Source of the DNA: an uncultured delta proteobacterium
GTDB taxonomy: Bacteria > Desulfobacterota > Syntrophia > Syntrophales > Smithellaceae
Length of the DNA stretch: 64,000 bases
Assembly: GCA_963726395.1 (NCBI GenBank)
Contig: CAVSCG010000036.1
Coordinates: forward strand, 19,060 to 83,059
Direction: 5' to 3'
Below the pieces are notes generated by a model. The model saw only the letters and a list, made by a program, of their open reading frames with translations, ran no database searches and had not been told where the DNA came from. Position numbers and translations under genes: made by a program. Position 1 is the stretch's first letter; each line of letters opens with the position of its first letter. Shown here piece after piece: positions 5,109 to 55,899 of the stretch.

Positions 5109-5995
5109 ACTGTTTTTCTCCAGCTCGATAACGGTCCATCCAGTAACGATGCAAGACGTTGCATCATCCGGCCTGTCGTGTATCGCCTTGCGGTTGCAAC
5201 TGCCGCTTGCCGCATTCGGAAAAGCAGACCGGCACATTGTTCCTGAAGAATCTCTCCAACGGCGCCCACAAAGTCCTGCGACTTTACGATCCGGCAATTT
5301 ATGCCATCGTCAAGGTATTCCATGCCTCCCAAAACCGGTAAAGACACAACCAGGCAGCCAGCCGCCATTGCTTCTAGTGCAGGAAGTCCAAACCATTCAT
5401 GCTCAGCGGTCGCCAAATAAATTGAGCTGTACTGCATGATACGGGCTACCTCAGCTTCACAAATATTGTCGATCGCAATATAACGCTTGCTCGCGTAAGC
5501 GCGCTTTACCTCATCGCATATATACCCGCCACGGCGTGGCATGTATGCAACAGCGTTTTCGAATTTCGGCACTCCGGCGTAAAAAAAACTCGACGTTATT
5601 GATATTCCAACCTCGATAGGATTAATTACACTATGCGTCTGGACATATTCCGTGGCTTGCCTCCAGCAGGTAAGCACCTGCACGGAAGAATTGGCAAGAA
5701 TAGGATCAATGAGAGGATCTGTCCCCTGGCAGTGGAACACTAACTGTCCGGGAAGTTTCCGTAAAGCAGCATAATCATGCGGCAGTGAAAACACAGCGGT
5801 GTCTTCCGGCCGAAATGAATCACGCACGGCTTCAGCATCAACGACCGCAGCATGAGAAAAAAACCAATCCGCAGTTCTTCCTCCGGGAGAAGCAATGACT
5901 GCCATTACTCCAAGCGCATTCAGCGCATCAACAAACTGGTAGGCAACCTTGATCCCACCAAATATTGTCGTATCGGGAACGAAGTAATACAACAT
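5105..5995 (-). CDS. Glycosyltransferase, GT1/GT4-like
   Basis: 296 aa. E-x7-E-type motif EHEWFGLPALEAMAAGCLVV. Start shares one base with the upstream stop. Confidence 0.7.
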   Translation of the reverse strand: MLYYFVPDTTIFGGIKVAYQFVDALNALGVMAVIASPGGRTADWFFSHAAVVDAEAVRDSFRPEDTAVFSLPHDYAALRKLPGQLVFHCQGTDPLIDPILANSSVQVLTCWRQATEYVQTHSVINPIEVGISITSSFFYAGVPKFENAVAYMPRRGGYICDEVKRAYASKRYIAIDNICEAEVARIMQYSSIYLATAEHEWFGLPALEAMAAGCLVVSLPVLGGMEYLDDGINCRIVKSQDFVGAVGEILQEQCAGLLFRMRQAAVATARRYTTGRMMQRLASLLDGPLSSWRKTV

Positions 5996-8168: not shown

Positions 8169-9203
8169 TTAAGCTTGTTTTTTTAGTTTAATCATTTCTT
8201 TGAATCTTTTCAATCTTTGTCCAATCATACGAAGAGGCCTGGTAATGCGCCAACTGGTAGAGTTATAAAGTGCTGCAATCTGGTTGTCTCTCGCGGTCAA
8301 GAACTGTTGCAGCTCCTCCTTTTGAGCCAGGAGTTCTTCTTTCGTCACGTGACTGGCGCTATAAATAAATTCTACGCTCGGATTATGTCTGTATGAAATA
8401 TTCGTTAACAGCTTAACATCCAATTTGTGTTGCCATATAACATAAGGAAGGCTGAGCTGATCTCGCCTTGAATAATTTTCAACCCACCACCACCAATCAT
8501 TCATCACAGCGATGACTCGATCATCGTGATGTTCCCTGTACATTATATTACTTTCAAACAGACCATTTTTTGCCGGAAAACCGGCTCTTCTGATCAAGTC
8601 CACCTGTCTTCTCATGACATTTTCATCGTCTTTTCCCAGTTCCATGCAAGCAGTGAGTTCATCATAAATGCAACTTCTGACCGGATGTGGTGCAATGGAT
8701 ATCAGACGGGATTCAGCTATGGCCATGTCGATGTCGGCAAACAGATCTTTATTCAAAATATTGATGTTGGCGTCAAGCCATATGCTTTTTTTATACTCGG
8801 GAAACAGGATGTGCGGATGGATTTTATGCCATCTCTGGTTGCGGACATTATCCAGCTTGTCAAAAAGAAGAGGCCTGATGTCCCAGAAAGAATCGGCGGC
8901 GTTGACAATGGATAAATCATCGGTAAAACAAACATAGTCCCAATCCTGATTGACAAATGTATGATTGATAAGATCATCATAGCCGTCGGTTATGCAAGTG
9001 TATATCACGCCTTTTTTTTGACTATTATCCACAGGACTCGACCTTATGTCGCTTTGTATAAATAATGGGTTAATTGCATGAATTATCGCTTTAAAAATGT
9101 CATGATGGTTTTCTGCGCAAGAATAATATGTAAATACGCCTTGCCAATCTTTGTGCCGGGGGTGGCAGCAGATGCATATGTTCTTTAACTTTATTTCCTG
9201 CAA
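8169..9203 (-). CDS. DUF616 (TOD1/MUCI70-like) glycosyltransferase-domain protein with C-terminal STSWRITRPLR module
   Basis: Contains GVIYTCITDGYDDL...WDYVCFTDD, typical of DUF616. The maximal ORF starts at TTG 9203 and overlaps the upstream gene by 104 nt. A GTG at 9032, preceded by AAGG, is an alternative start. Confidence 0.7.
   Translation of the reverse strand: MQEIKLKNICICCHPRHKDWQGVFTYYSCAENHHDIFKAIIHAINPLFIQSDIRSSPVDNSQKKGVIYTCITDGYDDLINHTFVNQDWDYVCFTDDLSIVNAADSFWDIRPLLFDKLDNVRNQRWHKIHPHILFPEYKKSIWLDANINILNKDLFADIDMAIAESRLISIAPHPVRSCIYDELTACMELGKDDENVMRRQVDLIRRAGFPAKNGLFESNIMYREHHDDRVIAVMNDWWWWVENYSRRDQLSLPYVIWQHKLDVKLLTNISYRHNPSVEFIYSASHVTKEELLAQKEELQQFLTARDNQIAALYNSTSWRITRPLRMIGQRLKRFKEMIKLKKQA
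8172..8285 (-). repeat. Third copy of the STSWRITRPLR module, at the C-terminus of the DUF616 protein
   Basis: NQIAALYNSTSWRITRPLRMIGQRLKRFKE matches the two modules in the upstream gene. Confidence 0.8.
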
Positions 9204-11229
9204 ATCGCAAAGGCCTGGTTATTCGCCAGCTTGTCGACTGGTAGAGTGCAGCAATCTGCGCATCGTGCTCGGAAACGGCCTGATCGAGGTCTGTGCCCCG
9301 TCCGACGCCGTTCCCAGTTAAGATTTGCATTGGCTGCCGTCCCTCCGGCAATCGTCCGGCCGGCATCGGCATCAGATGCATATATTTTTTAACTTTGTCT
9401 CCTGCAAATCGTAAAGGCCTGGTCATTCGCCAGCTCGTCGAGGAATAAATGGCGGCAATCTGCGCTTCACGGTCCGCCAATATTTCGAGCGGAAGGGATG
9501 GGCTTTCGTGATTCATGTAAGTACGCATTGTTTTATAGTAGATACAAGTGCTGCAAGGAATATCTTCCCGCGGAGGCATCAGGCCCATTAACATTTGACG
9601 CGCATAATTTATCTTTTCATTGTTGATGCATTCCAGCAATCCCTCTTCAAACACATTTCCGTAGTCCAGTTTATAATTAATGCTGCAACCCAGCAGTCTT
9701 CCGTCCGCATGGATCTGGAGGTTTTCCCAAAGCTGCCCGCAGGAAACTTTTTGCAGGTAATGCTCCCCGTGCTTTTCTAAATATTCCTGCCGGTCGGCGC
9801 AATCCAGGCCGCTTTCTCTCCGTATACGTTCCCGATTTCTTACCGGCGAAAATATTTTGCCCGTATACAGATCGCCAAAGGATAATTTTACGCGAAAATC
9901 CATTTTCAGTTCAACAGCCATATTTCTTGCTTTTTCAATTTCGTGTTCATTATGTCCAAAAGCAATAAACTGCCAGGTCATTTTAGGCAGATCCGTTTTG
10001 TAGCGCTGCTTGAATGCATTGATCGTACGAATATGAGCAATGACTCTTTCAAAGTCGCCGCCGACACGGTATATTTTATAGGTCTCATTGGACGCCCCAT
10101 CCAAAGCAACGGTCATACCCTGTAATTGATATTTCACCAGAGCCTCTAATATGTCGCTGGTGGCGGTATTCAAATTCACGCCGCAGTTTGCCTGCAAGGC
10201 GACATTCTTTTTAAATCCGTATTTAAGAATGGCTGTTATTTCAGGATTTAAAAGGATTTCTCCCCAGTTCGACAATTCGATAGATTTGATCCATGGATTG
10301 GCATCAATTAATTTTTTGAAATCGGTAAATTTCAAGAATTTTGCTCCTAAAGTCTTTAGCGTCATCCCCTGACCGGTAGGACAGGAAGGGCACTTAAGCT
10401 GACAGGCTGAAGACGCGTCAAGCATAATGAATGACGGCTTAATCATTCCATTCAGTTTGAAACCGGATAATTTCTGCCATCGCTCTGCGGAATGTCGATG
10501 AAATTCGAAGACGAGATATTTGGCTGTACAATCGGTAGGGTTGGACATTCCATGGGGTTTCCCGGCTTCATAGAAAATCACGCTGGGCGCTTTGATGATT
10601 TGGCCAAGCGTCTCTACTTCCCCTTCCAGGAGAAGAATGGCCACGTCGTAAGGATCAACATGCGGTTCATAACCGGAGCCGGAAGCCAGACTCGTCGCGT
10701 GACAGTGAAGCTTTCCCAAATACTGGGTCGGCTCCTCAAACATAAGTTGCATCGAAAGACTCTGATCGACACCAATCTCATCCCGTGCCGGCAGAGCATT
10801 GAAACGACAAAAATCCAGCATGGCGTTCCGAAAAGAAGAGAGTCCGCGCCATCGAAACATAAGATAATTTGCTGGTTGTTCGCTGATCGTTTCGAGACTG
10901 TGCGCGAAGTTGGCCGGGTAGAAAACAAAATCGTATTTTTGTAAACGTTTCCGATAAAAGCCGGGTTGAGCGGAGGCATGATGATCTTTCAAAATAATAT
11001 CGATTTCGCCCGATAAAACAATCAGAATCTCTTCGTCTGTGTGTTCATGAGGGGCGTGCGGACTGAAACCGCAGGCCAGTGTTGAAGCATGACAGGAAAG
11101 ATGGTTCAGTGTAGCCGTTGAACCCTGAAAAATAGGATAAGGCTTCCACACTTCCCCGGCATCCAGAGGCAAAGGAAGTTTGAAGGGATAGCACCCGCTT
11201 TTTATTACCGTTTGATTGATGATTCTCAA
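9100..11229 (-). CDS. Bicupin + radical SAM/SPASM fusion protein with two tandem C-terminal STSWRxTRPLR modules
   Basis: 709 aa. Cupin 1: GFSPHAPHEHTDEEILIVLSGE..PANFAHS. Cupin 2: YEPHVDPYDVAILLLEGE..GKPHGMSN. Radical SAM cluster motif: CQLKCPSC (Cx3Cx2C). A Cys-rich SPASM-like region follows (CGQLW..GCSINY..PCSTCIYY). Two repeats follow: AQIAAIYSSTSWRMTRPLRFAGDKVKKYMHL and AQIAALYQSTSWRITRPLRFAGNKVKEHMHL. Confidence 0.8.
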   Translation of the reverse strand: MRIINQTVIKSGCYPFKLPLPLDAGEVWKPYPIFQGSTATLNHLSCHASTLACGFSPHAPHEHTDEEILIVLSGEIDIILKDHHASAQPGFYRKRLQKYDFVFYPANFAHSLETISEQPANYLMFRWRGLSSFRNAMLDFCRFNALPARDEIGVDQSLSMQLMFEEPTQYLGKLHCHATSLASGSGYEPHVDPYDVAILLLEGEVETLGQIIKAPSVIFYEAGKPHGMSNPTDCTAKYLVFEFHRHSAERWQKLSGFKLNGMIKPSFIMLDASSACQLKCPSCPTGQGMTLKTLGAKFLKFTDFKKLIDANPWIKSIELSNWGEILLNPEITAILKYGFKKNVALQANCGVNLNTATSDILEALVKYQLQGMTVALDGASNETYKIYRVGGDFERVIAHIRTINAFKQRYKTDLPKMTWQFIAFGHNEHEIEKARNMAVELKMDFRVKLSFGDLYTGKIFSPVRNRERIRRESGLDCADRQEYLEKHGEHYLQKVSCGQLWENLQIHADGRLLGCSINYKLDYGNVFEEGLLECINNEKINYARQMLMGLMPPREDIPCSTCIYYKTMRTYMNHESPSLPLEILADREAQIAAIYSSTSWRMTRPLRFAGDKVKKYMHLMPMPAGRLPEGRQPMQILTGNGVGRGTDLDQAVSEHDAQIAALYQSTSWRITRPLRFAGNKVKEHMHLLPPPAQRLARRIYILFLRRKPS
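9154..9465 (-). repeat. Two tandem copies of an approx. 36-aa coding module (AQIAA[IL]Y.STSWR[MI]TRPLRFAG.KVK..MHL.P.PA)
   Basis: Copies at about 9358..9465 and 9154..9261 are also similar at DNA level (ctgcaaatcg[ct]aaaggcctggt[ct]attcgccagct). Confidence 0.85.
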
Positions 11230-31275: not shown

Positions 31276-33437
31276 TTATACGGCACAAACATCAACCGGG
31301 GCCTTAACTTCTTCCTTTCCCATGGCCTTGACAACCAGTTCCGCAATATCCCAGGCGGCCATCGTTTCCGTCATCTGATTGTCCTTGATGCCGTCGGACA
31401 TCATGGTCAGACAGAACGGACAGCCCACGGCAATCGTGTCGGCCTTCACAGCGATAGCCTGCTTGGTGCGCGCATTGTTGATCCGCTCTCCAATATCTTC
31501 TTCCATCCACATTCTCGCGCCACCGGCGCCGCAACAGAAGCTCTTGTCGAGATTGCGTTCCATTTCCACCAGTTGAAGGCCGGGAATGGCTTTCAAAATC
31601 TGACGGGGTGGTCATAAATATTGTTATAGCGGCCCAGGAAGCAGGAATCGTGATAGACAAATGTACCCTTGAGCGGCTGGCGTAGTCTGATCTTGCCGTC
31701 GGCAATCAGTTTCGCGATGATTTCCGTATGGTGATACACTTCGAAATTGCCGCCGAAATTGGGGTAATCTTTCTTCAAAGAGTTATAGCCGTGCGGGCAG
31801 ATGGCGATGATTTTCTTCACGCCGTAGCCGTTCATCACGTCAATATTGGCCTGGGCCAGTGACTGGAAAAGATACTCGTTGCCGGAACGCATCGCGGAAT
31901 CGCCGCAGCAGCCTTCTTCGTTGCCCAGAATACCGAAGCTGACACCGGCTTCCTGTAAAATCTTGGCCAAGGCGATGGAAATCTTCTTGCCGCGGTCGTC
32001 AAACGAACCGGAACAGCCCACGTAGAAAAGATACTCAACATTGGGATCTTCAGCCAGGGTCTTGATGCCCAGTTCTTTGGCCCAATCGCCACGCATGTGC
32101 GCACCGACACCCCAGGGATTGGAGTTGTTTTCCATATTACGACAGGTCAATTGCAATTCGGGAGCGAAATCCGCTTCGGTCAGAACCTTATACCGTCTCA
32201 TGTCAATAATCTTTGGCACATGTTCAATCGACGCCGAGCAGTGTTCCATACAATACATACAGTTGGTGCAAGCCCATAGTTCGTGCAGGTCAACGACTTC
32301 ACCCACCAGCGCTTTCCCTGTTGCTTCTTCGGCCGGAGCTTCCGCAGGCTCTTCGCCTTGGGCCGGAGGAGCGGGCACGAGGCCCAGTTTCTGGGATACC
32401 TTCTCCATCAGGGGATCCGGACATTTTTCCAGCCAGTAGGTTTTAATATCCTGAACCATTTTCTTGGGAGACAAAGGCTTGCCCGTCAGGTAAGCCGGGC
32501 AACCGTCCTGGCAACGACCGCAACGGGTACAGGCGTCGGAATCAAAAATCTGTTTCCAGGTGAATTCTTCAAGTTTACCGACACCAAACGCTTCCGCATT
32601 TTCGAAATCGCGGATCGGTTCAATGTAACCGGTCGGCTGGTGCGATTGGAGAAAATGGTTCGCCGGGGTGGTAATAATATGGAGCAGGCGTGAATAGGGA
32701 ATATACGCAATAAATCCGAGCCCCAGAATCGCATGCACCCACCAGGTCAATTGATGAACGGTTCTGGCGGTATCCAGTTCTATGCCGGTAAAGGTACGGG
32801 ACAAAAGCCAGCCCACGAACGACCAGACTTCCCAGGGCGGATTGGTCACATAAATGCGAAGCGCTTCTGCTATAAAGCCGGTGACGATGATGGCGCCGAT
32901 GAGCAGAAGAACGATCACATCATCGGGTGTATTGTCGATCTCGCCTTTATAACCCAGACGATCCGGCTTCGCCACAAACCGGCGATCCAACGCAAGAACG
33001 ACTCCGATCAGGACCGCCAATCCGAAAAGATCCATCAGGAAAGAAAAGCCTAAATAAAAATTGCCTTTCAGAAATGTCCAACCAAAGAGCGGTTCCGTAA
33101 CATGATGCTGCCCCGCATCAAATGCGGCGCCGAAAATCAAAACAAAAAAACCAAAAAAGATTAAAGCGTGCATGATGCCCGGATAGGGATCTTTCAAGAC
33201 TTTCTTCTGCAGGAAAATTTCCTGAAGAACCGTTTTGACTCTTTCCTTCATATTGTCCAGGCGCATCTCCGGCTTGCCCATGGCTTTCCACATCAGCCAG
33301 CGACGATAAATGCCAAAAGCCATAATGGCCAGGGCAACGGCCGTGAGGGCAAAAAGGACGATCTCAAACGCCGGCAGGGGAATGTTCCAGAAAACCTCGC
33401 GGCCTTCACGACCTACATAAAATGCATGTTCTTTCAT
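31276..33437 (-). pseudogene. Membrane heme-b/Fe-S oxidoreductase with CCG domains (Etf-associated, DUF224/HdrD-GlpC-like), one frameshift
   Basis: N-terminal part has about 6 TM helices. Two 4Fe-4S motifs: CTRCGRCQDGCP and CTNCMYCMEHCS. CCG domains: YVGCSGSFDD..GCCGDS and HDSCFLGRYN..|..SFCCGAGG. The pieces 31593..33437 and 31276..31596 join as ..NNIYDHPRQILKAIPGLQL.. if the G4 run at 31605..31608 is G5. Confidence 0.85.
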
Positions 33438-33491
33438 TGATCCTCCAACAAGACTTGAGAGCTAATTCTTGTCTTTTAAATATCAAGCACC

Positions 33492-33530
33492 AAAAAGGTC
33501 TTTGCCCCGCAGCTGCGGGGCAAAGACCTT
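33492..33530 (-). terminator. Strong rho-independent terminator after etfA
   Basis: Minus strand: AAGGUCUUUGCCCCGC-AGCU-GCGGGGCAAAGACCUU (16-bp stem) followed by UUUGG. Confidence 0.85.
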
Positions 33531-33537
33531 ATGGTTT

Positions 33538-34515
33538 TTAAGCAACCAGTTTCTTGCAAACTGCTGTCAATTCGGGAACGACCTTGAACAGATCGTCAAC
33601 AACTCCGTAATCCGCTTTCGTGAAAATAGGAGCCTCGGCATCCTTATTGATTGCAACGATACACTTGGATGAGCTCATGCCCGCCAGATGCTGAATCGCG
33701 CCGGAAATGCCGCAGGCGATGTACAGGTTCGGAGAAACAACCTTACCGGTCTGCCCGACCTGATCTTTTTGCGGACGCCAGCCGGCATCGACTGCCGCGC
33801 GGGACGCGCCAACCGTACCTTTGATCGCTTCGGCCAGTTCTTCGAGAATAGCATAGCCTTCGGGGCCTTTCATACCGCGGCCGCCGGAGACAATCACAGT
33901 GGCTTCCGTCAAATCGACTTTACCACTGCTGTCTTTCTGCACTTCCAGAACTTTGCTCTTGATCGATGCTGCATCGACAGCTGCATCCACTTTCACCACT
34001 GCGCCGGCTTTGGCATTTTCAGCGGCCGGAAACACATTGGGACGGAGCGATGCCATCGCCGGTGTTGAACTGGTAACGATTTCACCAAAGCACTTCCCTG
34101 CATACAAGGGGCGAATAGCGACAAATTTGCCACCATCCAGCTTTACATCCGTACAATCTGTGGCGAGACCCGTGGCTAATTTAGCGGCCACGCGGGCAGC
34201 CAGATCTTTACCCTGAACCGACGCGCCCAAAAGCAGAATCGCCGGATCATTTTCTTTAACCACTTTGGCGACCACGGCGGCGTGCGCTTCAGTGATATAG
34301 GGCTCCATGGCAGCATTGTCGCCCACAAAAACCTTATCCACACCATATTTGCCCAACTGAGCGGCCAAACCTTCTATACCTGCACCAAGCAGAATGGCGC
34401 TGACTTCATCGCCGGTCTGGTCGGCCAGCTTGCGGGCTGTCGAGGCCAGTTCCATGCTGATTTTCCTGAGCGCGCCGTCCCGCTGTTCTGCTACTATCAT
34501 AACTCCTTTTGCCAT
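33538..34515 (-). CDS. etfA: Electron transfer flavoprotein subunit alpha
   Basis: 325 aa. Contains SGGRGMKGPEGY...GASRAAVDAGW...QVGQTGKVVSPNLYIACGISGAIQHLAGM. Confidence 0.95.
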   Translation of the reverse strand: MAKGVMIVAEQRDGALRKISMELASTARKLADQTGDEVSAILLGAGIEGLAAQLGKYGVDKVFVGDNAAMEPYITEAHAAVVAKVVKENDPAILLLGASVQGKDLAARVAAKLATGLATDCTDVKLDGGKFVAIRPLYAGKCFGEIVTSSTPAMASLRPNVFPAAENAKAGAVVKVDAAVDAASIKSKVLEVQKDSSGKVDLTEATVIVSGGRGMKGPEGYAILEELAEAIKGTVGASRAAVDAGWRPQKDQVGQTGKVVSPNLYIACGISGAIQHLAGMSSSKCIVAINKDAEAPIFTKADYGVVDDLFKVVPELTAVCKKLVA

Positions 34516-41635: not shown

Positions 41636-42809
41636 ATGGACGATACAAAGACTTTTGCCGAAATGTTCGAGGAATCCTATGCCACCCCCAAGCGATTTTC
41701 CGTGGGGGAAAAAGTGGAAGCGACAATTGTCAAAATTTCGCCGGAATGGATTTTTATTGATTTGGGCGCTAAAAGTGAAGGCTACATGGATAAAAAAGAA
41801 TTCCTCGATGACGCGGGCAATCTGACCGTTAAAGAAGGCGACACCGTCACCGCCTACTTCCTTTCGTCGCGTCACAGCGAAAGACTCTTTACGACCAAAT
41901 TGCTCGCACGCAAAAGCGTGGATGAATTTTTAGTCAACGCCTATTCCAACGCGATTCCACTGGAGGCGATTGTCGAAAAAGAAATTAAAGGCGGCTTCTC
42001 CATAAAAATCAGCGCCAGTGCGAACGGCTTTTGTCCTTACTCGCAAATGGACACGAGAAAAATTGACAACGCCGCGGATTACGTCGGTAAAAAATTCGAT
42101 TTCATTGTCATAGAATATGGAGAAAATGGTCGCAAGATTATCCTATCGCGCCGCCCGTTGCTGGAAAAGATTGAAGAGGAGAAAAAATCCGTCCCTGCAA
42201 AACTCCCTGCAAAAAGGTATGACGGTACAAGGCGTGGTAACCTCGGTGCGCGACTTCGGCGCGTTTGTCGATATCGGCGGCGTGCAGGCCCTGCTGCCGG
42301 TTTCGGAAATGACCTGGGGTAGAGTAGAAGACACGCGATCACTCTATAAACCAGGCGACACCATTGAAGCCGTCATCATTAACCTGGATTGGGAAAACGA
42401 CCGCGTGACGCTATCCTTCAAAGATACACTCCCCGATCCGTGGAATGAGGTTGTCCGAAATTATATCGAAGGCAGCATCCACAAGGGCAAAGTTTCAAGG
42501 CTGACGGATTTTGGCGCGTTTATCACGCTGGAAGCAGGCGTGGATGGGCTCTTGCATATCTCCAAACTGGGCAAAGGGAAAAAGATCAAGCACGCCCAAG
42601 ACGTCCTGTCCAAAGATCGCGAAATCGACGTGAGAATCGAAAAGATTGACCGCGACAATAAGCGAATATCACTGGATCTTGCAACAAACAGCGAGGAGAA
42701 AAATGGCTCGTCGGAAGAAAGCGACAACTATCAGAGTTACATGCCCAAGGCGCCCAAAACCATGGGTACATTCGGCGATCTGCTGAGCAAAGCAAAAAAG
42801 AAGAAATAA
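41636..42809 (+). pseudogene. S1 RNA-binding domain protein (RpsA-like, about 4 S1 domains), one frameshift
   Basis: 41636..42322 and 42117..42809 join as ..LLEKIEEEKNPSLQNSLQKGMTVQGVVTSVRDFGAFVDIGG.. if the A6 run at 42182..42187 is A5. Repeated S1 motifs are present (G.V..L.DFGAFI). Confidence 0.85.
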
Positions 42810-46603: not shown

Positions 46604-48298
46604 CTAAAGATTTTTAACCAGCGTTTTTATTCCGGCTGCGGCGTCTTTTTTCCAGTGGATGCGGATAATTTTGCGGCCTTTATCCATCAACGCCTGACGG
46701 TCTGCCTCGGCCTGCGCGGCTTTGAGCTCTCCGAAAGTCAGAGAAGAGTCGGGTTTGCAAAGAGCGTCGGGGATATCCAGATCCGATTTGTTTTCGCTGG
46801 TCATCTGAATAAACAGGCCGTGGCCTGCGTCGCCTTTATGCAACTGGCCTACCGAATGCAGATAGCGGGGGCCGTAGCCGACCGTTACGGCTATACCGTA
46901 TTTTCGGGAAATCGCCGACCGCAACTGCCCCAGCGCATCGTCGATTTGCGGCGACGGACTTAAATAAACCTGCAACCCCATGTAAGCGTTTGCCGTCGAT
47001 GGCGTTAGAAAATTGGTCAGTGCTTCGGAAACGGTTGTCCCGGAAATATCGCCGTAAACCTCACAGTCGCCGGCGGCAAGTGACGGTTGCGTCTTCGGCC
47101 ACGCCTTATTTTTTTTGAATTCCGCAAGCATCCGGTTCGTGTGCTTTTTGGTCGCTTCGACATCCGGTTGATCGAATGGGTTGATTCCCATGATGTGAGC
47201 GGCGACAGCCGTCGCCATTTCCCACAGAAACATTTGACCGCCCAGATCATAGGCATCATGAATCCGAATTTTCAAGATGGGATGTCCGGCGGTCGCCAGT
47301 TCCATTATCTGTGAATTCCATTCGTTATGGTCATCATAAAAAAAGACAAAGACGCGATCATTCCCGTAAGTGCTGACATCCATCGACGGTTCATTCAACA
47401 CCGGCAGAATTCCCTTGCCCTCTTTGCCGGTGCTCTCCGCGATCAATTGTTCCAGCCAATCGCCAAAAGATTTCCAGGACGGCGGAAGCATCAACGTGAG
47501 CTTGTCGCGGCCGTATTGCGCAAGTGTTCCCAAAGCGGCGCCTAAAAGACAGCCGGTGGAGTCGCCTTTGCCGGAAAAGAAATCAGTCTTTTCCTGCTGG
47601 GCAACGGCTACCGCGTTTTGCAGTAGTTTTTCAATCTGAACACCGATTAATGCCGCGGGAATCATTCCCACCAGGGAAAGCGCCGAATAACGGCCGCCGA
47701 TATTGGGATTGTTGGAAAAAATGTAGGGAAGCTGCAATTGCCAGGCCTGCTCAAGCATGGGACTGCCTTCATCAGTAATGAACATGAAATGCTCGTTGGC
47801 CGAAACGTCCGGTTTTTCGTCGGTTACGTTGTAGAAATAATTAAAAAGCGAGACAATTTCCAGAGTCGTCCCTGACTTTGAAGAAACGATAAAAAGCGTT
47901 TTTTCCAGGTTGAGTTTTTCGGCCAAGCCGCGGATGGCCGCCGGATCGGTTGTATCCAGAATTTGCAGCCGTGGGTAGCCCGGCGCGCATCCGATGATGT
48001 TGTTGAAGACTTCCGCCGACAGACTCGATCCGCCCATGCCCAAAAGGACAACGTCTTCAATGCTGCCGTTGGTGAAGGGCGTAAGCGAGGCGCGGATGCT
48101 GTGGACATGTGCTGACGTTTCCACGGGGGCGTGCAGCCAGCCCAGCCGATTGGAAATTTCCTCAGGCGCCGGTTTCCAGACATGAAAGTCGTTTGCCCAG
48201 ATGCGCGCGGCAATGTTTCCGCGGCGCATCTTCTCCAATGCGTTGGTGACAGCACTCTGATAGGGTCCAAGTAAAAAAGAAATGCCTGTTGTCTGCAT
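46604..48298 (-). CDS. pgi: Glucose-6-phosphate isomerase
   Basis: 564 aa. Contains LLGMGGSSLSAEVF, IVSSKSGTTLE, NIGGRYSALSLVG. The start shares one base with the tkt stop. Confidence 0.9.
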   Translation of the reverse strand: MQTTGISFLLGPYQSAVTNALEKMRRGNIAARIWANDFHVWKPAPEEISNRLGWLHAPVETSAHVHSIRASLTPFTNGSIEDVVLLGMGGSSLSAEVFNNIIGCAPGYPRLQILDTTDPAAIRGLAEKLNLEKTLFIVSSKSGTTLEIVSLFNYFYNVTDEKPDVSANEHFMFITDEGSPMLEQAWQLQLPYIFSNNPNIGGRYSALSLVGMIPAALIGVQIEKLLQNAVAVAQQEKTDFFSGKGDSTGCLLGAALGTLAQYGRDKLTLMLPPSWKSFGDWLEQLIAESTGKEGKGILPVLNEPSMDVSTYGNDRVFVFFYDDHNEWNSQIMELATAGHPILKIRIHDAYDLGGQMFLWEMATAVAAHIMGINPFDQPDVEATKKHTNRMLAEFKKNKAWPKTQPSLAAGDCEVYGDISGTTVSEALTNFLTPSTANAYMGLQVYLSPSPQIDDALGQLRSAISRKYGIAVTVGYGPRYLHSVGQLHKGDAGHGLFIQMTSENKSDLDIPDALCKPDSSLTFGELKAAQAEADRQALMDKGRKIIRIHWKKDAAAGIKTLVKNL

Positions 48299-50372
48299 TA
48301 CATTTCTCCTTCGCTACGAATGGACAGCATTTTCGTGGCCGCCGCGACAATGTTGGCGGACGTGAAACCGAATTTTTCATAAAGCGCGGGCGCGGGCGCG
48401 GACGCGCCAAAGGTTTCCATACCCAGGATCTTTCCCGTCAGCCCCACATAATGTTCCCAGCCCAGCTTGATGCCGGCTTCCACGGCCAAGCGAGCGGTTA
48501 CTTGCGGAGGCAATACTGAATCGCGGTATGCCTGAGGCTGGCGATCGAATATTTCCCAACTGGGCAAAGAAACGACGCGGACTTTTATATTTTCCGCAGC
48601 AAGCTTGCGAGCGGCATCTAATGTCATGGCGACTTCCGAACCGGTGGCAATCAGAATCATCTCCGGATTCGATGACGACTCCCATAAAATGTAGCCTCCC
48701 TGCCGGACACCGGCGGCGGGTGCCAAGACCTGCCGATCCAGCACCGGTAAATTCTGACGGCTGAAAACCAGCGTGGTGGGACCTTTGGTGTTCATGAGCG
48801 CCAGACGCCAGGCTTCCAGGGTTTCATTGGCATCCGCCGGACGCAACACGGTCATATTGGGGACTTGCCTCAAATTCATGATCTGCTCAATGGGTTGATG
48901 CGTTGGGCCGTCTTCGCCCACGCCGATGCTGTCGTGTGTAAAAATAAAAATGGCACGCAACCCCATCAAAGCGGCCAGCCGCATGGGCGGACGCATATAG
49001 TCGGCAAACGTTAAAAAGGTTGCCGTGTAAGGAATTACACCGCCGTGCAGCGCCAGGCCCACGACAATGGAACCCATCGCGTGCTCGCGCACGCCGAAGT
49101 GGATGTTTCGTCCCGAGTAATCCCATGCCCCGCCCACCATGCCGTGCAGACCCTCGCAGGACAAGGCCGGGCTTTGGAAATCGCCAAAGCCCTTAAGCCA
49201 GGTAAACGTAGAAGGATTAAGATCCGCCGAGCCTCCGGCCAGTTCCGGAACTTTGGCCGCAAGAGTCTGCATGACGATTTCAGAGGCTTTGCGGGTGGCG
49301 ACATCTTTGGAGCCGGAGGGAAACTCGGCAAGCGCCGCTTCCCAATCAGCGGGCAGTTCGCCGCGCATGGCTCTTTCCAGTTCAGCAGCCAGCACTGCAT
49401 CTTTTTGCCGGTAAGCCGCGAACGTTTCAAGCCAGCTTTTTTCACTTTTTTTGCCGCGGGAAACAGCCTTGCGAAAATATTTGCTCTACGTCATCGGCAA
49501 CATAAAAGGATTCATCGACCGGCCAGGCGCAATGCCTCTTTCGCGCCTTGAATTTCTTCAGCCCCCAGCGGCGAGCCGTGGGCGTCGCAGCGGCCTTGTT
49601 TGCAAGGCGCGCCGTAGCCGATAGTGGTCTGCACACAGATCAGCGAGGGTTTGCCGGTTTCCTTTTTGGCTTTTTTAATCGCCCGGTCGATGACGGCCAC
49701 ATCGTTGCCGTCCTGAACTTTCTGCACCTGCCAGCCGTAAGACTTGAAGCGCATTTCGATATTTTCGGTAAAAGACAATCCTGTGGAGCCGGCCAGGGAT
49801 ACTTTGTTGTCGTCATAAAGAACGATGAGTTTCCCCAGACGCAGATGACCGGCCAGAGCACAGGCTTCCGCGACCACGCCTTCCATCATGTCGCCGTCTC
49901 CGGCCATGACATACGTGTAATGATCAACGATGGGTTGCCCGTCGCGATTGAACCGCGCTGCCAGATGCGCCTCGGCAATAGCCATGCCGACGGCGTTCGC
50001 CAGTCCCTGCCCCAGAGGGCCGGTAGTCACTTCTACGCCTGCCGTATGTTTATATTCAGGATGTCCCGGTGTGCGGCTGCCCCACTGGCGGAAATTTTTG
50101 ATGTCGTCGAGCGAAAGATCGTAGCCGGTCAAATGTAAGAGAGCGTATAAAAGCATCGAGGCGTGGCCGGAGGATAGAACAAAGCGGTCGCGATCCGGCC
50201 ACTGTGGATTTTTCGGATTATGCTTCAGATGTTTTGTCCATAAAGTAAAGGCTGCCGCCGCCGCTCCCAGGGGCATGCCGGGATGGCCGGATTTGGCTTT
50301 TTCAATGGCATCCGCGGCCAAAAATCGAATGGTATCAATACATTGTTTTTCCAACTCATTTTTATCAGACAT
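48298..50372 (-). pseudogene. tkt: Transketolase, two frameshifts
   Basis: The pieces 49512..50372 ([31 protein letters not shown]), 49442..49636 ([17 protein letters not shown]) and 48298..49395 are colinear with one Tkt. Shifts lie at the A4 run 49474..49477 and near 49526. Confidence 0.9.
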
Positions 50373-51657: not shown

Positions 51658-52596
51658 TTACTCCTTCATCGTTACCGGAGGAACCTCGCCTTCTTCCTTA
51701 TCCGGCCAAATGATGGATGATAGGATCGAGACCACCAGAATAGAGGCGATGACGAGCAGCGAAGCCGCAACCGGTACATGGAAAAAATCTTCAATGAGCA
51801 TCTTGATGCCGACAAAGCTTAAGATGGCCGCCAGACCGTAATGGAGAAGGTGGAACAATTTCATCAAACCGGAAATCGCGAAAAAGAGCGAACGCAGGCC
51901 TAAAATCGCAAAGACGTTGGACGTATAAACGATAAAAGGATCTTTGGAGATGGCCAAGACAGCAGGAATCGAATCAACTGCGAAAAGAATATCGGTGGTT
52001 TCCAGGGCCAGAAGAACGGCCAGCATCGGCGTGGCATATCGGACGCCGCGTTTGACGACAAAAAATTTGGCTTCGGAAAATTTATGGGTGACAGGCATGA
52101 AAAAACGCAAAATTTTTATCGCGATATTCTTGTCGGGATGGACTTCCGTCTGTTTGTTCAGCGCCATTTTGATGCCGGTAAATATCAGGAAAGCGCCGAA
52201 AATATACATGACCCAGCTGAAGGCATTGATCAGCGCGACCCCCGCGAAGATAAAGACCCCGCGTGTCACCAGCGCCATCAATATCCCCCAGAACAGCGCC
52301 TTGTGTTCGTAAGCGTGAGGAACGTTGAAAAAACGGAAAATCAGCATGAATACAAAAAGATTGTCGATGCTCAAAGAGTATTCGATGAGATAACCGGCAA
52401 CAAATTCCATCGCTTTCCCGTGGCCATAGAAAAAGTAAATCGCTGCGGCGAACAAGAGCGCCAGTGTCACCCAGAAGGATGTCCATAGCATGGCTTCCTT
52501 CATTTTAATGACGTGAGATTTGCGGTTGAAAACGCCAAGATCAAGCGCCAGCATGGCCAGAATGAAGACCGTAAAGATTATCCACCACCATGTCAT
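51658..52596 (-). CDS. TerC-family integral membrane protein
   Basis: 312 aa. Contains YLIEYSLSIDNLFVF and ETTDILFAVDSIPA (the paired TerC motifs). Confidence 0.85.
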   Translation of the reverse strand: MTWWWIIFTVFILAMLALDLGVFNRKSHVIKMKEAMLWTSFWVTLALLFAAAIYFFYGHGKAMEFVAGYLIEYSLSIDNLFVFMLIFRFFNVPHAYEHKALFWGILMALVTRGVFIFAGVALINAFSWVMYIFGAFLIFTGIKMALNKQTEVHPDKNIAIKILRFFMPVTHKFSEAKFFVVKRGVRYATPMLAVLLALETTDILFAVDSIPAVLAISKDPFIVYTSNVFAILGLRSLFFAISGLMKLFHLLHYGLAAILSFVGIKMLIEDFFHVPVAASLLVIASILVVSILSSIIWPDKEEGEVPPVTMKE

Positions 52597-52613: not shown

Positions 52614-53945
52614 TTATATTGAACGGCCGAGCGCCTGAGCCGCGTTATGAATAATGTCCCAGGCCGGACTGAAAGGCGGGGCATAAGCCAGATCCAGATA
52701 GCCGATCTGATCGAGATCCATTCCCACCCAGAGCGCGACAGAGAGCGCGTTGATCCTTCCCACCGCGCCGGCCACACCGACGGCCTGCGCCCCCAGCAGC
52801 TTGCCCGATGATTGGTCGGCAATCAGTTTCAGGCCGATTTTTCTCAGGCCCAGCGCAGGCGCCATGGCGCTGCCCCAGGTTATGTTGCTTGCCGGCGTAA
52901 AGCCCACGGCAAGGGCTTCTTTTTCTGAAAGTCCCGTGGCTGCGCATTCCAGATTAAACAGCCGAAAAGACTGAGCACCGACGATGCCGTCAAAGGTCAG
53001 CGGTTTGCCGCCGATGTTGCGTCCGGCAACACGTCCCTGTTTGTTGGCGATATCGCCCAGTGGAATATTTACCCAGCGGCGACTGACACGATGAAATGAT
53101 TCGCAGCAGTCGCCCACGGCATACACATTTTCCAGAGAGGTCTGCTGGGAGAAATTGACGGCAATTGCGCCGGATGGGCCAATTTTCAAACCCATCGATT
53201 GCGCCAGACGCGCGTCGGGCCTTACGCCGATGGCCAGTAAGACCAGATCGCCTTCATATTCACCTTTATCCGTTCTAACGCAAAGCAGTGCGTTTTTTCC
53301 CTTTTCAATCGCCAGGGCGGCAGCATCGGCTACAAATTCCACACCGTGGGCATGAAGTTCTTCAAGCATCATGGACGACAGAGCCGCGTCCCAGCGGTTG
53401 GCCGGCAGCGGGTCTTTGTGGATGATCGTCGTTGTAATGCCCGAGGCAGAAAGCGCCTCGCTCATTTCCAAACCGATAAAGCCGCCGCCGATGATCACGA
53501 CGCGTTTCGCGCTTTTTTCCTTAAGCCAAGTTTTAATATGGATAGCATCTTCCAGATTGCGCAGCGAAAAAACACCGGACAGATCTAGCCCTGGCATGTC
53601 CGGCACAATCGCGGACGTGCCGGTGGCCATGACCAGAATGTCATAGGGTATTTGACGGTTATCCTGAATTTCGACGATGCCTTTTGCCGGATCAATGCCA
53701 GCCACCCGTGCCTGAATTTGCACCTCAATGCCGCCTTCACGGAATTTTTCCGGCGTTCGGGCAATCAGCTTGCTTTGTTCTTGAATTACATCCCCGATGT
53801 AATAGGGCATCGGTCAGGCGGTAAAGGCGACAAATTTCCCCTTTTCCAGCATCGTGACATTCAGGGACGGATTGTTTCTTTTCGCTTCAGCGGCAGTGGA
53901 ACCGCCGCCCGCGCCGCCGCCGACAATTACTAAGTTTCTACTCAT
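52614..53945 (-). CDS. FAD-dependent pyridine nucleotide-disulfide oxidoreductase (CoA-disulfide reductase / NADH oxidase-peroxidase family) with predicted selenocysteine at codon 44 (TGA 53816..53814)
   Basis: ATG 53945 opens MSRNLVIVGGGAGGGSTAAEAKRNNPSLNVTMLEKGKFVAFTA, then TGA, then PMPYYIGDV... All of it is in the frame of listed ORF 52614..53810. The TGA aligns with the redox Cys of the family motif (SF..C[GA][LMI]PY). A second dinucleotide fold is present (VVIIGGGFIGLE). Total 443 codons, which is normal for the family. Confidence 0.75.
53785..53803 (-). promoter_or_regulatory. SECIS-like stem-loop downstream of the in-frame UGA
   Basis: mRNA: UGA CCGAUGCCCU AUUACAUC GGG GAUGUAAU. This is an 8-bp stem with a G-rich apical loop that begins 18 nt after the UGA. 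An alternative 6-bp hairpin is CCGAUG/CAUCGG. Confidence 0.6.
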
Positions 53946-53958
53946 CATGACCTCCGCA

Positions 53959-54804
53959 TCATTTCTGACGGATTGAGGCTTCCTTGCGCCAAAGGATGAT
54001 GGCGATGCCTGCCAGCATCATGAATACACACAGGACTTGTCCCATCGTGTTGAATCCGAGAACAAACCCCAGGTGCGCGTCCGGTTCGCGGAAAAACTCG
54101 ATGAGGAAGCGCACCAGACCGTAGCCGAAAAGATAAAGACCGATCATGAAGCCGTCGAAGGGATTGCGCTTGCGAATCAACCAGAGAATGCAAAACAAAA
54201 ACAGGCCCTCGAACAGGGCTTCGTAAAGCTGCGAGGGATGCCGCAGACTCTGCGTCGCATCCAACGGAAAATACATTCCCCACGGTACCGTGGTCACGCG
54301 GCCCCAGAGTTCGCCGTTGATAAAGTTTCCGAACCTGCCAAACATGTAACCCAGCGGCGCTGCCGCGCATATCCAGTCTCCGAATTGCCAGGGGTTGATC
54401 TTGCGTTTATGGCAGAATAAAAGGGTAACCAGAATTACACCAATCAGGCCACCGTGATAGGACATGCCACTCAATCCGACAAATCGGAAACCGTTAGAAA
54501 AATCAAACGGCAGGATAATTTCCAGAAGATGGGAGCTGTAGTAACTGAAATTGTAAAACAGGGCGTAACCGAACCGGGCGCCGACAATCAGGCCGACCAT
54601 GGCCCAGACCAGATAATCCTGCAAGGTCTCCGTAGTTAAGGTGATTTCTTTGTGTTTAATCCGGTAGGCAAAAAGCAGATAGACCACGGCAAAAGCGACC
54701 AGATACATGAGACTGTAGTAACGCAACTGAAAAGATCCGATGCTGAAAAGCGTGGGACTGATCTGTGAGGGCAACTGCTGCCAGGCGCTGAGAAAATATT
54801 CCAT
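53959..54804 (-). CDS. lgt: Prolipoprotein diacylglyceryl transferase
   Basis: 281 aa. Contains SYHGGLIGVIL and GRFGNFINGELWG. Confidence 0.95.
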   Translation of the reverse strand: MEYFLSAWQQLPSQISPTLFSIGSFQLRYYSLMYLVAFAVVYLLFAYRIKHKEITLTTETLQDYLVWAMVGLIVGARFGYALFYNFSYYSSHLLEIILPFDFSNGFRFVGLSGMSYHGGLIGVILVTLLFCHKRKINPWQFGDWICAAAPLGYMFGRFGNFINGELWGRVTTVPWGMYFPLDATQSLRHPSQLYEALFEGLFLFCILWLIRKRNPFDGFMIGLYLFGYGLVRFLIEFFREPDAHLGFVLGFNTMGQVLCVFMMLAGIAIILWRKEASIRQK

Positions 54805-54936: not shown

Positions 54937-55899
54937 TTAGTACGTTTGACCCTTTATTTCATCTATATACAACTCCGCGCTATGTACGGCATTTGCGCCG
55001 TCTCCCGCAGCGGTGACGACCTGGCGGAAAAGTTTGGCGCGGCAATCACCCGCGGCAAAAATGCCGTCCGCATTGGTTCGCAAATGTTCATCCGTGACCA
55101 GAAAGCCTGTTTTATCCATTTCTACAAGACCTTTGAACATTTCCGTATAAGGCAGGCGGCCGACAAAAATGAACGCGCCGTCGGCGGCTATTTCGCTGAT
55201 CCCACCGGTGTTGACATCTTTAACTTTGACACCTGTGACAAACTCAGTGCCGGTGATCTCCGCCACCGTCGCATTCCAGATAAATTCAATCTTTTTTTCG
55301 GCAAAGGCCCTTTTTTGCAGCATACCCGCCGCGCGCAGTCGGTCACGGCGATGAATTACGATGACTCTTTTGGCAAAATGGGTCAGGAAAAGCGCTTCCT
55401 GAATGGCCGTGTCGCCACCGCCCACCACAATGACATCGCGGTTGCGGTAAAAAGGCCCGTCGCAAGTGGCGCAATATGATACGCCTTTCCCGGCAAATTC
55501 CGATTCTCCCGGAACGCCCAGATTGCGCCACATCGCGCCTGTCGCCGCAATAATACAGAGGGTTTTATAGATTTTGTCTCCGGCGGTCACTTCCCAGATC
55601 ACCTCGGCGGCAGAGCTCTTTTTAACGGCTGTTACATCCCGGGGAAGACTTTCCAGACCGAATTTCAGCGCCTGCTTTTTAAAAAGCTGCATCAGCTCAA
55701 AACCGCCGATACCATCGGGAATGCCCGGATAATTTTCGATCATATCCGTTATCGTGATCTGGCTCACCGTTCCCGCACCTTCAATGAGCAGCGTTTTAAG
55801 ACCGGCGCGTGCGGCATAGATGCCGGCCGTGTAGCCTGCCGGCCCGCCGCCGATAATGACGATATCATAATCATATTCCGGCAAGTTTGCTTGCGTCAT
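54937..55899 (-). CDS. trxB: Thioredoxin-disulfide reductase
   Basis: 320 aa. Contains IIGGGPAGYTAGIYAAR, the redox motif CATCDG, and VVGGGDTAIQEALFL. Confidence 0.95.
   Translation of the reverse strand: MTQANLPEYDYDIVIIGGGPAGYTAGIYAARAGLKTLLIEGAGTVSQITITDMIENYPGIPDGIGGFELMQLFKKQALKFGLESLPRDVTAVKKSSAAEVIWEVTAGDKIYKTLCIIAATGAMWRNLGVPGESEFAGKGVSYCATCDGPFYRNRDVIVVGGGDTAIQEALFLTHFAKRVIVIHRRDRLRAAGMLQKRAFAEKKIEFIWNATVAEITGTEFVTGVKVKDVNTGGISEIAADGAFIFVGRLPYTEMFKGLVEMDKTGFLVTDEHLRTNADGIFAAGDCRAKLFRQVVTAAGDGANAVHSAELYIDEIKGQTY

Follow-up and report, generated by a model that had tools for sequence, protein, structure and literature searches.

A probable selenocysteine codon at the catalytic position of a CoA-disulfide reductase/NADH oxidase-family flavoprotein in the Smithellaceae

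Kryukov and Gladyshev are said to have first found, in 2004 and in Geobacter metallireducens, the selenoprotein family with which the present locus is compared. The family is catalogued with the G. metallireducens protein WP_011365774.1 as its exemplar in the entries of PMC1794560, PMC9312934 and PMC13188914, and the entry in the 2026 catalogue lists UGxP as its selenocysteine (Sec) motif and TIGR03385 as its model (PMC13188914). For the RNA element that directs Sec insertion in bacteria, the bSECISearch consensus of Zhang and Gladyshev (2005), as summarised in PMC13188914, describes an upper stem of 4-16 bp, an apical loop of 3-9 nt with G as its first or second base, usually followed by G or U, a distance of 16-37 nt between UGA and apical loop, and a minimum free energy of at most -7.5 kcal/mol. 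Within the lineage of interest, the literature records 19 selenoproteins in Syntrophus aciditrophicus and a complete set of selA, selB, selC and selD in a composite Smithella genome.

The window analysed here, a 64-kb stretch of DNA from a member of the Smithellaceae, carries on its minus strand a locus that, judged from its sequence, is very probably a single gene that encodes a homodimer-type FAD/NAD(P)H oxidoreductase, of the CoA-disulfide reductase (CoADR)/NADH oxidase (Nox)/NADH peroxidase (Npx) type, with Sec in place of the catalytic cysteine. The locus adds a member to a catalogued selenoprotein family, as the preliminary description of this DNA had supposed, and both family and mechanism are textbook. 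The frame runs from an ATG at 53945..53943 to a TAA at 52616..52614 (52614..53945 with the stop codon included) and comprises 443 sense codons with one in-frame TGA, codon 44 at 53816..53814, as its sole break. The 43 codons before the TGA (53817..53945, minus strand) encode the FAD-binding GxGxxG fold (VIVGGGAGGG) and are lost in stop-to-stop ORF calling. Around the UGA the predicted product reads MSRNLVIVGGGAGGG...KFVAFTA*PMPYYIGD, and its Sec-containing peptide would be FVAFTA-U-PMPYYIGDVIQEQSK.

Mechanical ORF calling splits the gene into 53814..53948 (44 aa) and 52614..53810 (398 aa, starting at Met46), which reproduces the truncated call, beginning at 53810, from which the preliminary description set out. 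That description had placed a FAD-binding N-terminus upstream in the same frame, interrupted by this TGA alone, and the frame and the domain matches agree with it: when the stop is set to cysteine, a single Pyr_redox_2 match (PF07992, E 4.2e-57) extends over residues 4-285 and across the TGA, PF00070 is also matched, and the dimerisation domain Pyr_redox_dim (PF02852) is found at residues 329-429. The two sides of the TGA score 0.43 and 0.42 for codon usage, compared with a mean of 0.27 for the long ORFs of the 64-kb window. When the whole window was scanned for same-frame ORF pairs split by one TGA, this site ranked first, and no second selenoprotein was found by the same scan. An alternative ATG lies at 53948, 3 nt 5' of the one at 53945; homologues, together with the spacing to a Shine-Dalgarno-like GGAGG read from the sequence at 53951..53955 (minus strand), 5 nt 5' of ATG 53945, favour 53945 as the likely start.

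With its Pyr_redox_2 and Pyr_redox_dim domains the gene product is a class-I pyridine nucleotide-disulfide oxidoreductase of the single-Cys group CoADR/Nox/Npx, with full-length matches to the structures 6ruz (E 2.7e-93), 4fx9, 3cgb, 1joa and 1yqz. The solved cysteine enzymes Thermus thermophilus Nox (6ruz), Pyrococcus horikoshii CoADR (4fx9/5l1n/3kd9) and Bacillus anthracis CoADR (3cgb) give end-to-end alignments of 430-440 residues (E 1e-78 to 1e-93) in which the two Rossmann folds, for FAD and for NAD(P)H, the domain for dimerisation and the site of the redox residue all correspond, but that residue is Cys in the solved enzymes and predicted Sec here. The UGA (53814..53816, minus strand) falls in the column of the family's single redox-active Cys, both in the alignment to solved structures and among orthologues. 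The query segment 'ftaCpmpyy' is matched to 'YGACGLPYV' in 6ruz and 'HAPCGIPYV' in 4fx9, so that the UGA column corresponds to the Cys of GAC-GLPY in the T. thermophilus enzyme and of APC-GIPY in P. horikoshii CoADR (4fx9/5l1n); the alignment that the preliminary description had asked for at column 44 thus bears out its assignment. The single redox residue lies, as in the family at large, some 42-48 residues from the N-terminus within a segment S/A-x-x-C-x-x-P-Y.

The models for CoADR are the best-scoring NCBIfam families, with TIGR03385 in second place, despite scores that lie below the curated cut-offs of the equivalogs NF007123 (382.8 vs 458 bits), TIGR03385 (379.9 vs 578.8) and NF010037 (229.8 vs 394). 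For H2O-forming Nox, the model NF046103 scores 232.6 bits where its cut-off is 600. The protein is therefore CoADR-like yet not assignable as CoADR, and its substrate cannot be transferred from the solved Cys enzymes because the scores fall below the cut-offs for both CoADR and H2O-forming Nox. The active-site His10 of Enterococcus faecalis Npx lies in the first Rossmann loop, GSSHGG. Here that loop reads GGGAGGG, with Ala in the column matching Npx His10 (a correspondence taken from the 1joa match, whose ungapped offset sets query residue 5 against chain residue 3).

Like the G. metallireducens family, the locus belongs to superfamily COG0446, is TIGR03385-like, has a single in-frame UGA, comes from a deltaproteobacterial anaerobe, and has many Cys homologues that align C to U at the catalytic column. 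It differs from the catalogued family, the Geobacter exemplar being compared by its catalogue description, in having U-P-M-P instead of U-G-x-P, with Pro rather than Gly after Sec in the same motif column. The U-P-M-P motif is present in the window and in every Smithellaceae Sec form. A distant Sec form, L058 (41% identity), carries the catalogued UGxP motif (as U-G-I-P) with its UGA in the same alignment column as that of the window; it has its own fdhF-like bulged hairpin, unlike the Smithellaceae Sec forms, in which an AU-rich stem of only 8 bp closes a GGN triloop. A second distant form, L057 (55% protein identity), keeps both the UGA and the hairpin and matches at 30 of the 32 nt that span the two.

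Smithellaceae genomes gave 44 orthologous loci that are informative at codon 44; this codon is TGA in 21, all from species-level genomes other than that of the window, which is counted separately, and TGT or TGC in the remaining 23. Two of the TGA forms stand on complete chromosomes, OY820932.1 and OY821638.1. The Sec forms share a mean pairwise nucleotide identity of 78%, and the base following TGA44 is C in every one of them. In full-length Sec-form orthologues codon 44 is the sole internal TGA and codon 444 the normal stop, the exception being L018, which has an indel. All 20 of 20 Sec-form genes have an ATG start and a frame open up to the UGA. Over codons 2-38 their entropy is 0.30 at the first codon position, 0.13 at the second and 1.08 at the third, and 2662 synonymous codon differences stand against 1141 non-synonymous ones. 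Both flanks of the UGA are under purifying selection, which for the codons 5' of it acts at the protein level; since these upstream codons evolve as coding sequence, the UGA must be read through. It was also observed that Sec or Cys status tracks the gene's first ~300 nt but not its remaining length, a pattern that points to recombination.

Downstream of the UGA lies a candidate SECIS core (53785..53803, minus strand), in which an 8-bp stem, AUUACAUC/GAUGUAAU, closes a GGG apical loop; along the minus strand its parts are ATTACATC at 53803..53796, GGG at 53795..53793 and GATGTAAT at 53792..53785. A 10-nt spacer separates the UGA from the stem, whose 8-nt 5' arm brings the distance to the loop to 18 nt. 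The sequence is as the preliminary description gave it, and comparison among orthologues adds that the hairpin is under nucleotide-level selection, and this in the TGA forms only. All eight Watson-Crick pairs and a GGN loop are kept in 21 of 21 Sec forms, whereas the Cys forms retain 4-8 of the 8 pairs, with a mean of 6.0. The codons of YYIGDxI supply part of the stem complementarity by themselves, and the loop GG, being part of a Gly codon, is found in Cys forms as well and does not discriminate. Third-position entropy over codons 41-50 is 0.19 bits in Sec forms and 1.18 in Cys forms, against a mean of 0.98 for the gene; these codons are the synonymous-diversity minimum of the whole gene in the Sec forms only. 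The zone of low synonymous change spans gene nt 125-161 (53785..53821, minus strand), taking in the GCCGCC-UGA-C context and the hairpin, and the three longest invariant runs of the gene in Sec forms, nt 142-152, 125-134 and 154-161, all fall here.

RNAalifold applied to the Sec forms picks the 8-bp hairpin. No covariation was found in the stem, all eight pairs being invariant across the Sec forms of the RNAalifold alignment, and the structural support is conservation and not compensatory change. The hairpin agrees with the bSECIS consensus in its 3-nt loop, 8-bp stem, loop G and 18-nt spacing, but its own energy of -5.7 kcal/mol (z = -8.3 against shuffles of the 21-mer) is weaker than the limit of -7.5, and a value of -8.6 is reached only when an unrelated downstream hairpin is included. 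No Rfam match for a bacterial SECIS was found, and a permissive scan of 53700..53900 gave chance matches only. Like SECIS elements of the Escherichia coli fdhF type, the candidate lies in coding sequence just 3' of the UGA, with a stem about 10-11 nt after it and a loop that opens G-G; unlike them, it has no bulged U, a 3-nt loop and an AU-rich stem. We infer that this hairpin is the SelB-recruiting SECIS.

When the single sequence is folded, the minimum-energy structure is a different hairpin, CCGAUG/CAUCGG with an 8-nt loop, directly 3' of the UGA (53794..53813, minus strand; local fold -8.5 kcal/mol), and the overall z is only -1.2. This competing hairpin was set aside as probably not the functional element: among 19 distinct Sec sequences, 5 have a CCG>CCC change that breaks it, and it departs from the SECIS spacing and loop-G rules.

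On the Sec reading, a ribosome reaching UGA44 would encounter the GGN-loop hairpin 10 nt downstream serving as a bacterial SECIS, which would recruit SelB with Sec-tRNA(Sec); Sec would be inserted and translation would run on to the normal stop. By homology with the Cys enzymes, electrons may then pass from NAD(P)H through FAD to Sec44 in an oxidised state, either as the selenenic acid that peroxide or O2 would produce or as a selenenylsulfide with CoA or a persulfide. Actual incorporation of selenium and the identity of the substrate are to be understood in the same conditional terms. Within the 64-kb window, ARAGORN, Rfam at gathering thresholds and NCBIfam scans of 30 large ORFs detected no tRNA-Sec, selA, selB or selD; ARAGORN and Rfam at gathering thresholds found no tRNA or RNA family of any kind there. 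Genome-wide reassignment of UGA was rejected, as TGA is an ordinary stop that ends 10 of the 38 long ORFs in the window.

The lineage offers a second way of reading such a codon. According to the account of Mukai et al. (2017, PMC5389517), deltaproteobacteria and the composite Smithella genome have tRNA-Sec-like selC* genes for tRNA-Cys whose anticodon is GCA or UCA, selC* is followed by a selB* gene in Syntrophobacterales and Desulfobacterales, and in E. coli a tRNA-Cys(UCA) of the selC* type inserted Cys at a Sec UGA. Such a system, reported from the same lineage, would target the same kind of UGA and SECIS site, and Cys is functional at codon 44 in 23 orthologues. The UGA might thus be decoded as Cys, always or at low selenium, by an opal-suppressor tRNA-Cys, possibly via a second SelB, to give a partly or wholly cysteine-containing enzyme. 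We regard this as very unlikely. No selC* or selB* was seen in the window or in the orthologous loci examined, PMC5389517 leaves the anticodon of the Smithella selC* unstated, and the genomes that bear selC* also possess a complete Sec apparatus; moreover, if only Cys were wanted, TGT or TGC would suffice, as in half of the relatives. The selC*/SelB* system is better seen as a possible modifier of how the UGA is read than as what the locus encodes. A broader proposal is that UGA44 has a dual use, being read as Sec via SelB and tRNA-Sec when selenium is available and as Cys via selC* tRNA-Cys(UCA)/SelB* when it is scarce, with Sec- and Cys-type 5' segments swapped among Smithellaceae by homologous recombination. 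This we consider improbable; were it true, one gene would yield either a seleno-enzyme or a thiol-enzyme, and a population would tune its selenium dependence by decoding and allele swapping.

Termination at UGA44 to leave a 43-residue peptide, followed by a restart at Met46, would give two products, and an ATG two codons past the UGA together with database entries for a 398-aa form are compatible with this. Re-initiation was nevertheless rejected and is extremely improbable: the 398-residue protein would be without the GxGxxG FAD-binding fold and without the catalytic residue, no Shine-Dalgarno-like motif precedes Met46 (GCCGCCUGACCG AUG), and the upstream 43 codons are conserved within the same domain in the Cys forms, which are single 443-aa proteins.

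That the TGA is a mutated or misread TGC or TGT, in a pseudogene or an assembly error, is effectively refuted: such a change takes one substitution and other genes of the window are broken, but a sequencing error or one-off nonsense mutation is ruled out because the TGA stands at the same codon in 21 other, independent species-level assemblies (with Cys in 23), it recurs in L057 and L058, both flanks evolve as coding sequence with one internal stop per Sec form, the hairpin specific to Sec forms is kept at synonymous sites, and the remaining breaks of the window are indels, not substitutions. Those breaks, in a transketolase (48298..49395 and 49512..50372) and an S1-domain protein (41636..42809), are of the frameshift type, and the earlier argument that the TGA is unlikely to stem from the error process that produced them is upheld.

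The Sec-type gene, which we call nox, stands in a conserved order, trxB-lgt-nox-terC, that is found in Sec and Cys loci alike. All four genes lie on the minus strand. Immediately upstream is lgt, for prolipoprotein diacylglyceryl transferase (53959..54804; TIGR00544, 245 bits), whose stop codon at 53961..53959 is 13 nt 5' of the nox ATG, and 17 nt past the nox stop is a gene for a TerC/Alx-family membrane protein (51658..52596; TIGR03718, 401.6 bits). A thiol-redox neighbourhood had been proposed for the locus on the strength of trxB. The thioredoxin-disulfide reductase gene is indeed two genes upstream (54937..55899; TIGR01292, 380.8 bits against a cut-off of 343), but trxB is the only such gene, and lgt lies in between.

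General knowledge of selenoproteins is unchanged by this locus. In practice, what matters most is that a gene of 443 codons is cut to 398 residues by gene callers and in public databases, the default mis-annotation that the preliminary description had predicted: about 33 of the best 120 database clusters are truncations of 398-399 aa, among them NCBI entries under the name 'FAD-dependent oxidoreductase [Smithella sp.]'. The gene and at least 21 orthologues stand in public databases as 398-residue proteins that have neither the FAD-binding fold nor the catalytic residue. The matched Sec and Cys orthologues, placed in one gene order, provide material for studying how a minimal SECIS originates from partly self-complementary codons, and the Smithellaceae set also suits the study of Sec/Cys status moving between lineages. 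For these widespread syntrophic degraders of alkanes and propionate in digesters, sediments and oil-impacted sites, metabolic and redox inference starts from the wrong protein.

The nox gene, which encodes a flavoprotein of the CoADR/Nox/Npx type, can be read on the minus strand as a single frame of 443 sense codons from ATG (53945..53943) to TAA (52616..52614). The sole in-frame interruption is a TGA at codon 44 (53816..53814), as the preliminary description of this DNA had proposed. A mechanical ORF listing divides the gene into pieces of 44 and 398 aa, the latter beginning at Met46. When Cys is substituted for the stop, Pfam returns one Pyr_redox_2 match (residues 4-285) that spans the TGA, bearing out the FAD-binding N-terminus claimed upstream in the same frame, together with Pyr_redox_dim at residues 329-429. 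When the window was scanned for pairs of ORFs in one frame separated by just one TGA, this site came clearly first, and codon usage on both sides of the TGA scores above the mean of the window's long ORFs. The genetic code is standard, since 10 of the 38 long ORFs end in TGA.

Searches of the read-through product against solved structures gave end-to-end matches to Thermus thermophilus NADH oxidase (6ruz, E 2.7e-93), CoA-disulfide reductases from Pyrococcus (5l1n, 4fx9 and 3kd9, E about 1e-80) and Bacillus anthracis (3cgb, E 1.8e-78), NADH peroxidase (1joa, E 6.5e-56) and Staphylococcus aureus CoADR (1yqz, E 1.7e-51). Codon 44 aligns with the single redox-active Cys (GAC-GLPY in 6ruz, APC-GIPY in 4fx9), confirming the catalytic column to which the TGA had been assigned. 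Because the first Rossmann loop, GGGAGGG, is without the His used by Nox and Npx, and because the top NCBIfam and PDB hits are of CoADR type, we lean, with low confidence, towards a CoA-disulfide, CoA-persulfide or polysulfide reductase rather than an oxidase. Following the chemistry of the family, NAD(P)H would reduce the FAD, which would in turn reduce the oxidised Sec, present as a selenenylsulfide with CoA or a persulfide, or as selenenic acid.

Scanning one genome per species yielded 46 orthologous loci, with protein identities of 70-95%, in MAGs of Smithella, Smithellaceae and 'Syntrophaceae', which places the window in a member of the Smithellaceae (Syntrophales). Of these loci, 44 cover the nox N-terminus and form the basis of the codon 44 counts. 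The codon is TGA in 21 of these (Sec forms, consensus AFAA-U-PMPYYIGDVI) and TGT or TGC in 23 (Cys forms, consensus SYAS-C-PTPYYIGD). Full-length Sec forms contain no internal stop besides codon 44 and end normally at codon 444, except for L018, which carries an indel. This locus (CAVSZS010000013.1, a 600-kb contig labelled 'Candidatus Aminicenantes') is frameshifted after the UGA; it has the Smithellaceae gene order at nox and 92-97% protein identity to the window, and the label probably reflects an error of taxonomy or binning.

Frameshift-type breaks do occur elsewhere in the window: transketolase is split into an N-terminal ORF (49512..50372) and a C-terminal ORF (48298..49395) in different frames, and a multi-S1-domain protein (41636..42809) into overlapping ORFs. 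Both breaks are of the indel type, as had been thought, and are typical of long-read assembly. An error of this kind at the nox TGA is rejected, as it would not account for a substitution common to relatives; most genomes of the scan are independent short-read assemblies. In the overlapping ORF pairs at 4374..5995 and 8169..11229, the matches are to different families, and these may be genuine neighbouring genes. At 31593..34515, an EtfA-like gene adjoins one for an Fe-S oxidoreductase of 614 aa whose C-terminus is CCG/HdrD-like, with acyl-CoA dehydrogenase and acyl-CoA ligase genes nearby; this is an electron-transfer module typical of syntrophic fatty-acid oxidisers and is consistent with the Smithellaceae as source.

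A single protein is translated across the UGA. Across codons 2-38 of the 20 usable Sec forms, entropy is 0.30, 0.13 and 1.08 bits at codon positions 1, 2 and 3, and codon differences comprise 2662 synonymous and 1141 non-synonymous changes (23306 and 14553 in the rest of the gene), making this segment at least equally constrained; an ATG start is present in all 20. A separate product from Met46 is rejected, as it would have neither the GxGxxG FAD-binding fold nor the catalytic residue. The Met46 AUG (53808..53810) lies two codons past the UGA in all Sec forms, Thr occupying this position in Cys forms, and the ready start codon it offers to gene callers accounts for the uniform 398-aa truncated calls across databases. 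Among the 120 best protein clusters, about 33 hold Sec forms cut short at 398-399 aa, named for instance 'FAD-dependent oxidoreductase [Smithella sp.]' or 'CoA-dependent NAD(P)H sulfur oxidoreductase', and the 442-443-aa entries examined are Cys forms; the locus is thus mis-annotated by default, as had been anticipated.

The 8-bp hairpin predicted after the UGA was located at 53803..53785, with its onset 10 nt past the UGA, and consists of the arm ATTACATC (53803..53796), the loop GGG (53795..53793) and the arm GATGTAAT (53792..53785). Mean pairwise nucleotide identity among the Sec forms is 78%, and their third-position entropy reaches its gene-wide minimum at codons 41-50 (0.19 bits vs a gene mean of 0.98); the same codons in Cys forms give 1.18 against a mean of 1.13. 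The three longest invariant runs in the Sec forms (gene nt 142-152, 125-134 and 154-161) correspond to both arms of the hairpin and to the UGA context. This context, GCCGCC-UGA-C (window 53813..53821), is without variation in Sec forms; UGA followed by C terminates translation weakly, which would favour recoding. All eight pairs are Watson-Crick in 21 of 21 Sec forms, the loop varying at its third base only (GGN), and RNAalifold on this group selects the same hairpin and detects no covariation in the stem, every pair being invariant.

Measured against the published bacterial SECIS model (PMC13188914), the hairpin agrees in apical loop (3 nt; model 3-9 nt), in G at the start of that loop, in upper stem (8 bp; model 4-16 bp) and in UGA-to-loop spacing (18 nt; model 16-37 nt), but its free energy of -5.7 kcal/mol falls short of the -7.5 kcal/mol or lower of the model. 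The minimum free energy fold of the window sequence alone is another hairpin, CCGAUG/CAUCGG (-8.5 kcal/mol), immediately 3' of the UGA. As a functional element it is rejected, because a CCG>CCC change disrupts it in 5 of the 19 distinct TGA sequences and because it departs from the SECIS rules on spacing and loop G. A ribosome with UGA in the A site would have melted it. The 8-bp hairpin is the functional candidate, on comparative rather than thermodynamic grounds, and SelB with Sec-tRNA(Sec) would bind it and insert Sec at UGA44, as in the established bacterial pathway. Cys forms retain 4-8 of the 8 pairs (mean 6.0) and the GG loop start (gene nt 143-161, e.g. L012, L007 and L015), a consequence of partial self-complementarity within the YYIGDxI codons. 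The SECIS stem resembles a pre-existing proto-hairpin that has been tightened, or else the Cys copies bear a decaying remnant.

Neighbour-joining bootstraps of nox by codon partition recovered a clean Sec/Cys split in 100 of 100 replicates for codons 1-66, 76 of 100 for codons 1-37 plus 57-70 (hairpin zone left out), 9 of 100 for codons 71-150 and 0 of 100 for both 151-300 and 301-443; it is thus the 5' part of the gene with which Sec/Cys status moves. When codons 71-443 are used, the window gene and its orthologue L001 group with a Cys clade (L002, L007, L008, L012, L015, L024 and L014; 76% support). By sliding identity the switch lies near nt 300, and the nearest relatives change near nt 300-450. 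The genes flanking nox are likewise discordant with one another. Homologous recombination between lineages, in either direction, is the most likely cause of this mosaic, and the sequence pattern suggests that the 5' segment with UGA and SECIS and its Cys counterpart have been exchanged in this way.

Several loci show further discontinuities. A Cys-form nox on a 1.9-kb metagenome contig (L056; JGI 3300010357, Ga0116249_10194826, 252..1580) shares with the window 97-100% identity from about nt 450 on, 62-83% in the first 450 nt and 96% in the start of terC; it could be a very recent allele swap or an assembly chimera. In L029 (CAZOPH010000052.1), TrxB and Lgt are 94-96% identical to those of the window, the Cys-form nox 74% and TerC 78%, both of the latter grouping with L032/L037, a pattern that suggests a break between lgt and nox, caused by either recombination or mis-assembly. 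Seven Cys forms (L017, L020, L022, L028, L031, L033 and L042) have a different genomic context, with no lgt, terC or trxB within 3 kb, and may be relocated or paralogous copies.

More distant Sec forms emerged when 50%-identity representatives were searched with a full-length Cys orthologue. The top match (P0121, 399 aa, aligned from query residue 47) and a lower one (P0181, 398 aa, from residue 53) are both truncated calls. The locus encoding P0121 (L057) reads ...VSYAA-TGA-PMPYYIGDVI...; in protein it shares 55% identity with the window gene, and from the UGA through the hairpin end 30 of 32 nt match, vs 57% identity in the following 150 nt. That encoding P0181 (L058; Logan SRR27730047_8334, gene 1394..2749) is 41% identical and reads ...TSYAA-TGA-GIPYYVG..., the U-G-x-P motif listed for the known selenoprotein family, with its own fdhF-like hairpin (GGU loop, bulged U 22 nt past the UGA). 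Its neighbours (hemerythrin, TusA, DsrE, cysteine desulfurase and NifU genes) form a sulfur-trafficking context, whereas that in Smithellaceae is trxB-lgt-nox-terC.

The window gene is of a kind already known, as had been supposed: 'NADH oxidase' is a catalogued selenoprotein family, found in Geobacter metallireducens and an Olavius symbiont (PMC1794560; PMC1976440). It differs from the known family in its U-P-M-P motif, its short AU-rich hairpin and its scores below the curated NCBIfam cut-offs for CoADR and Nox. No tRNA or sel genes were found in the 64-kb window, and Sec machinery in this genome would be expected from the literature on relatives. Sec use is richest in deltaproteobacteria, with 19 selenoproteins in Syntrophus aciditrophicus of the same order (PMC1794560), and Mukai et al. 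found complete selA/B/C/D in all genomes carrying selC*, a tRNA-Sec-like tRNA-Cys, including a composite Smithella genome (PMC5389517). The data directly support the gene structure, the placement of the TGA at the catalytic residue, the division into Sec and Cys forms, and selection acting on the RNA element, and we are highly confident that nox is decoded with Sec. The main value of the finding is the correction of annotation, and the Smithellaceae set provides clean comparative material for SECIS evolution and Sec/Cys exchange.
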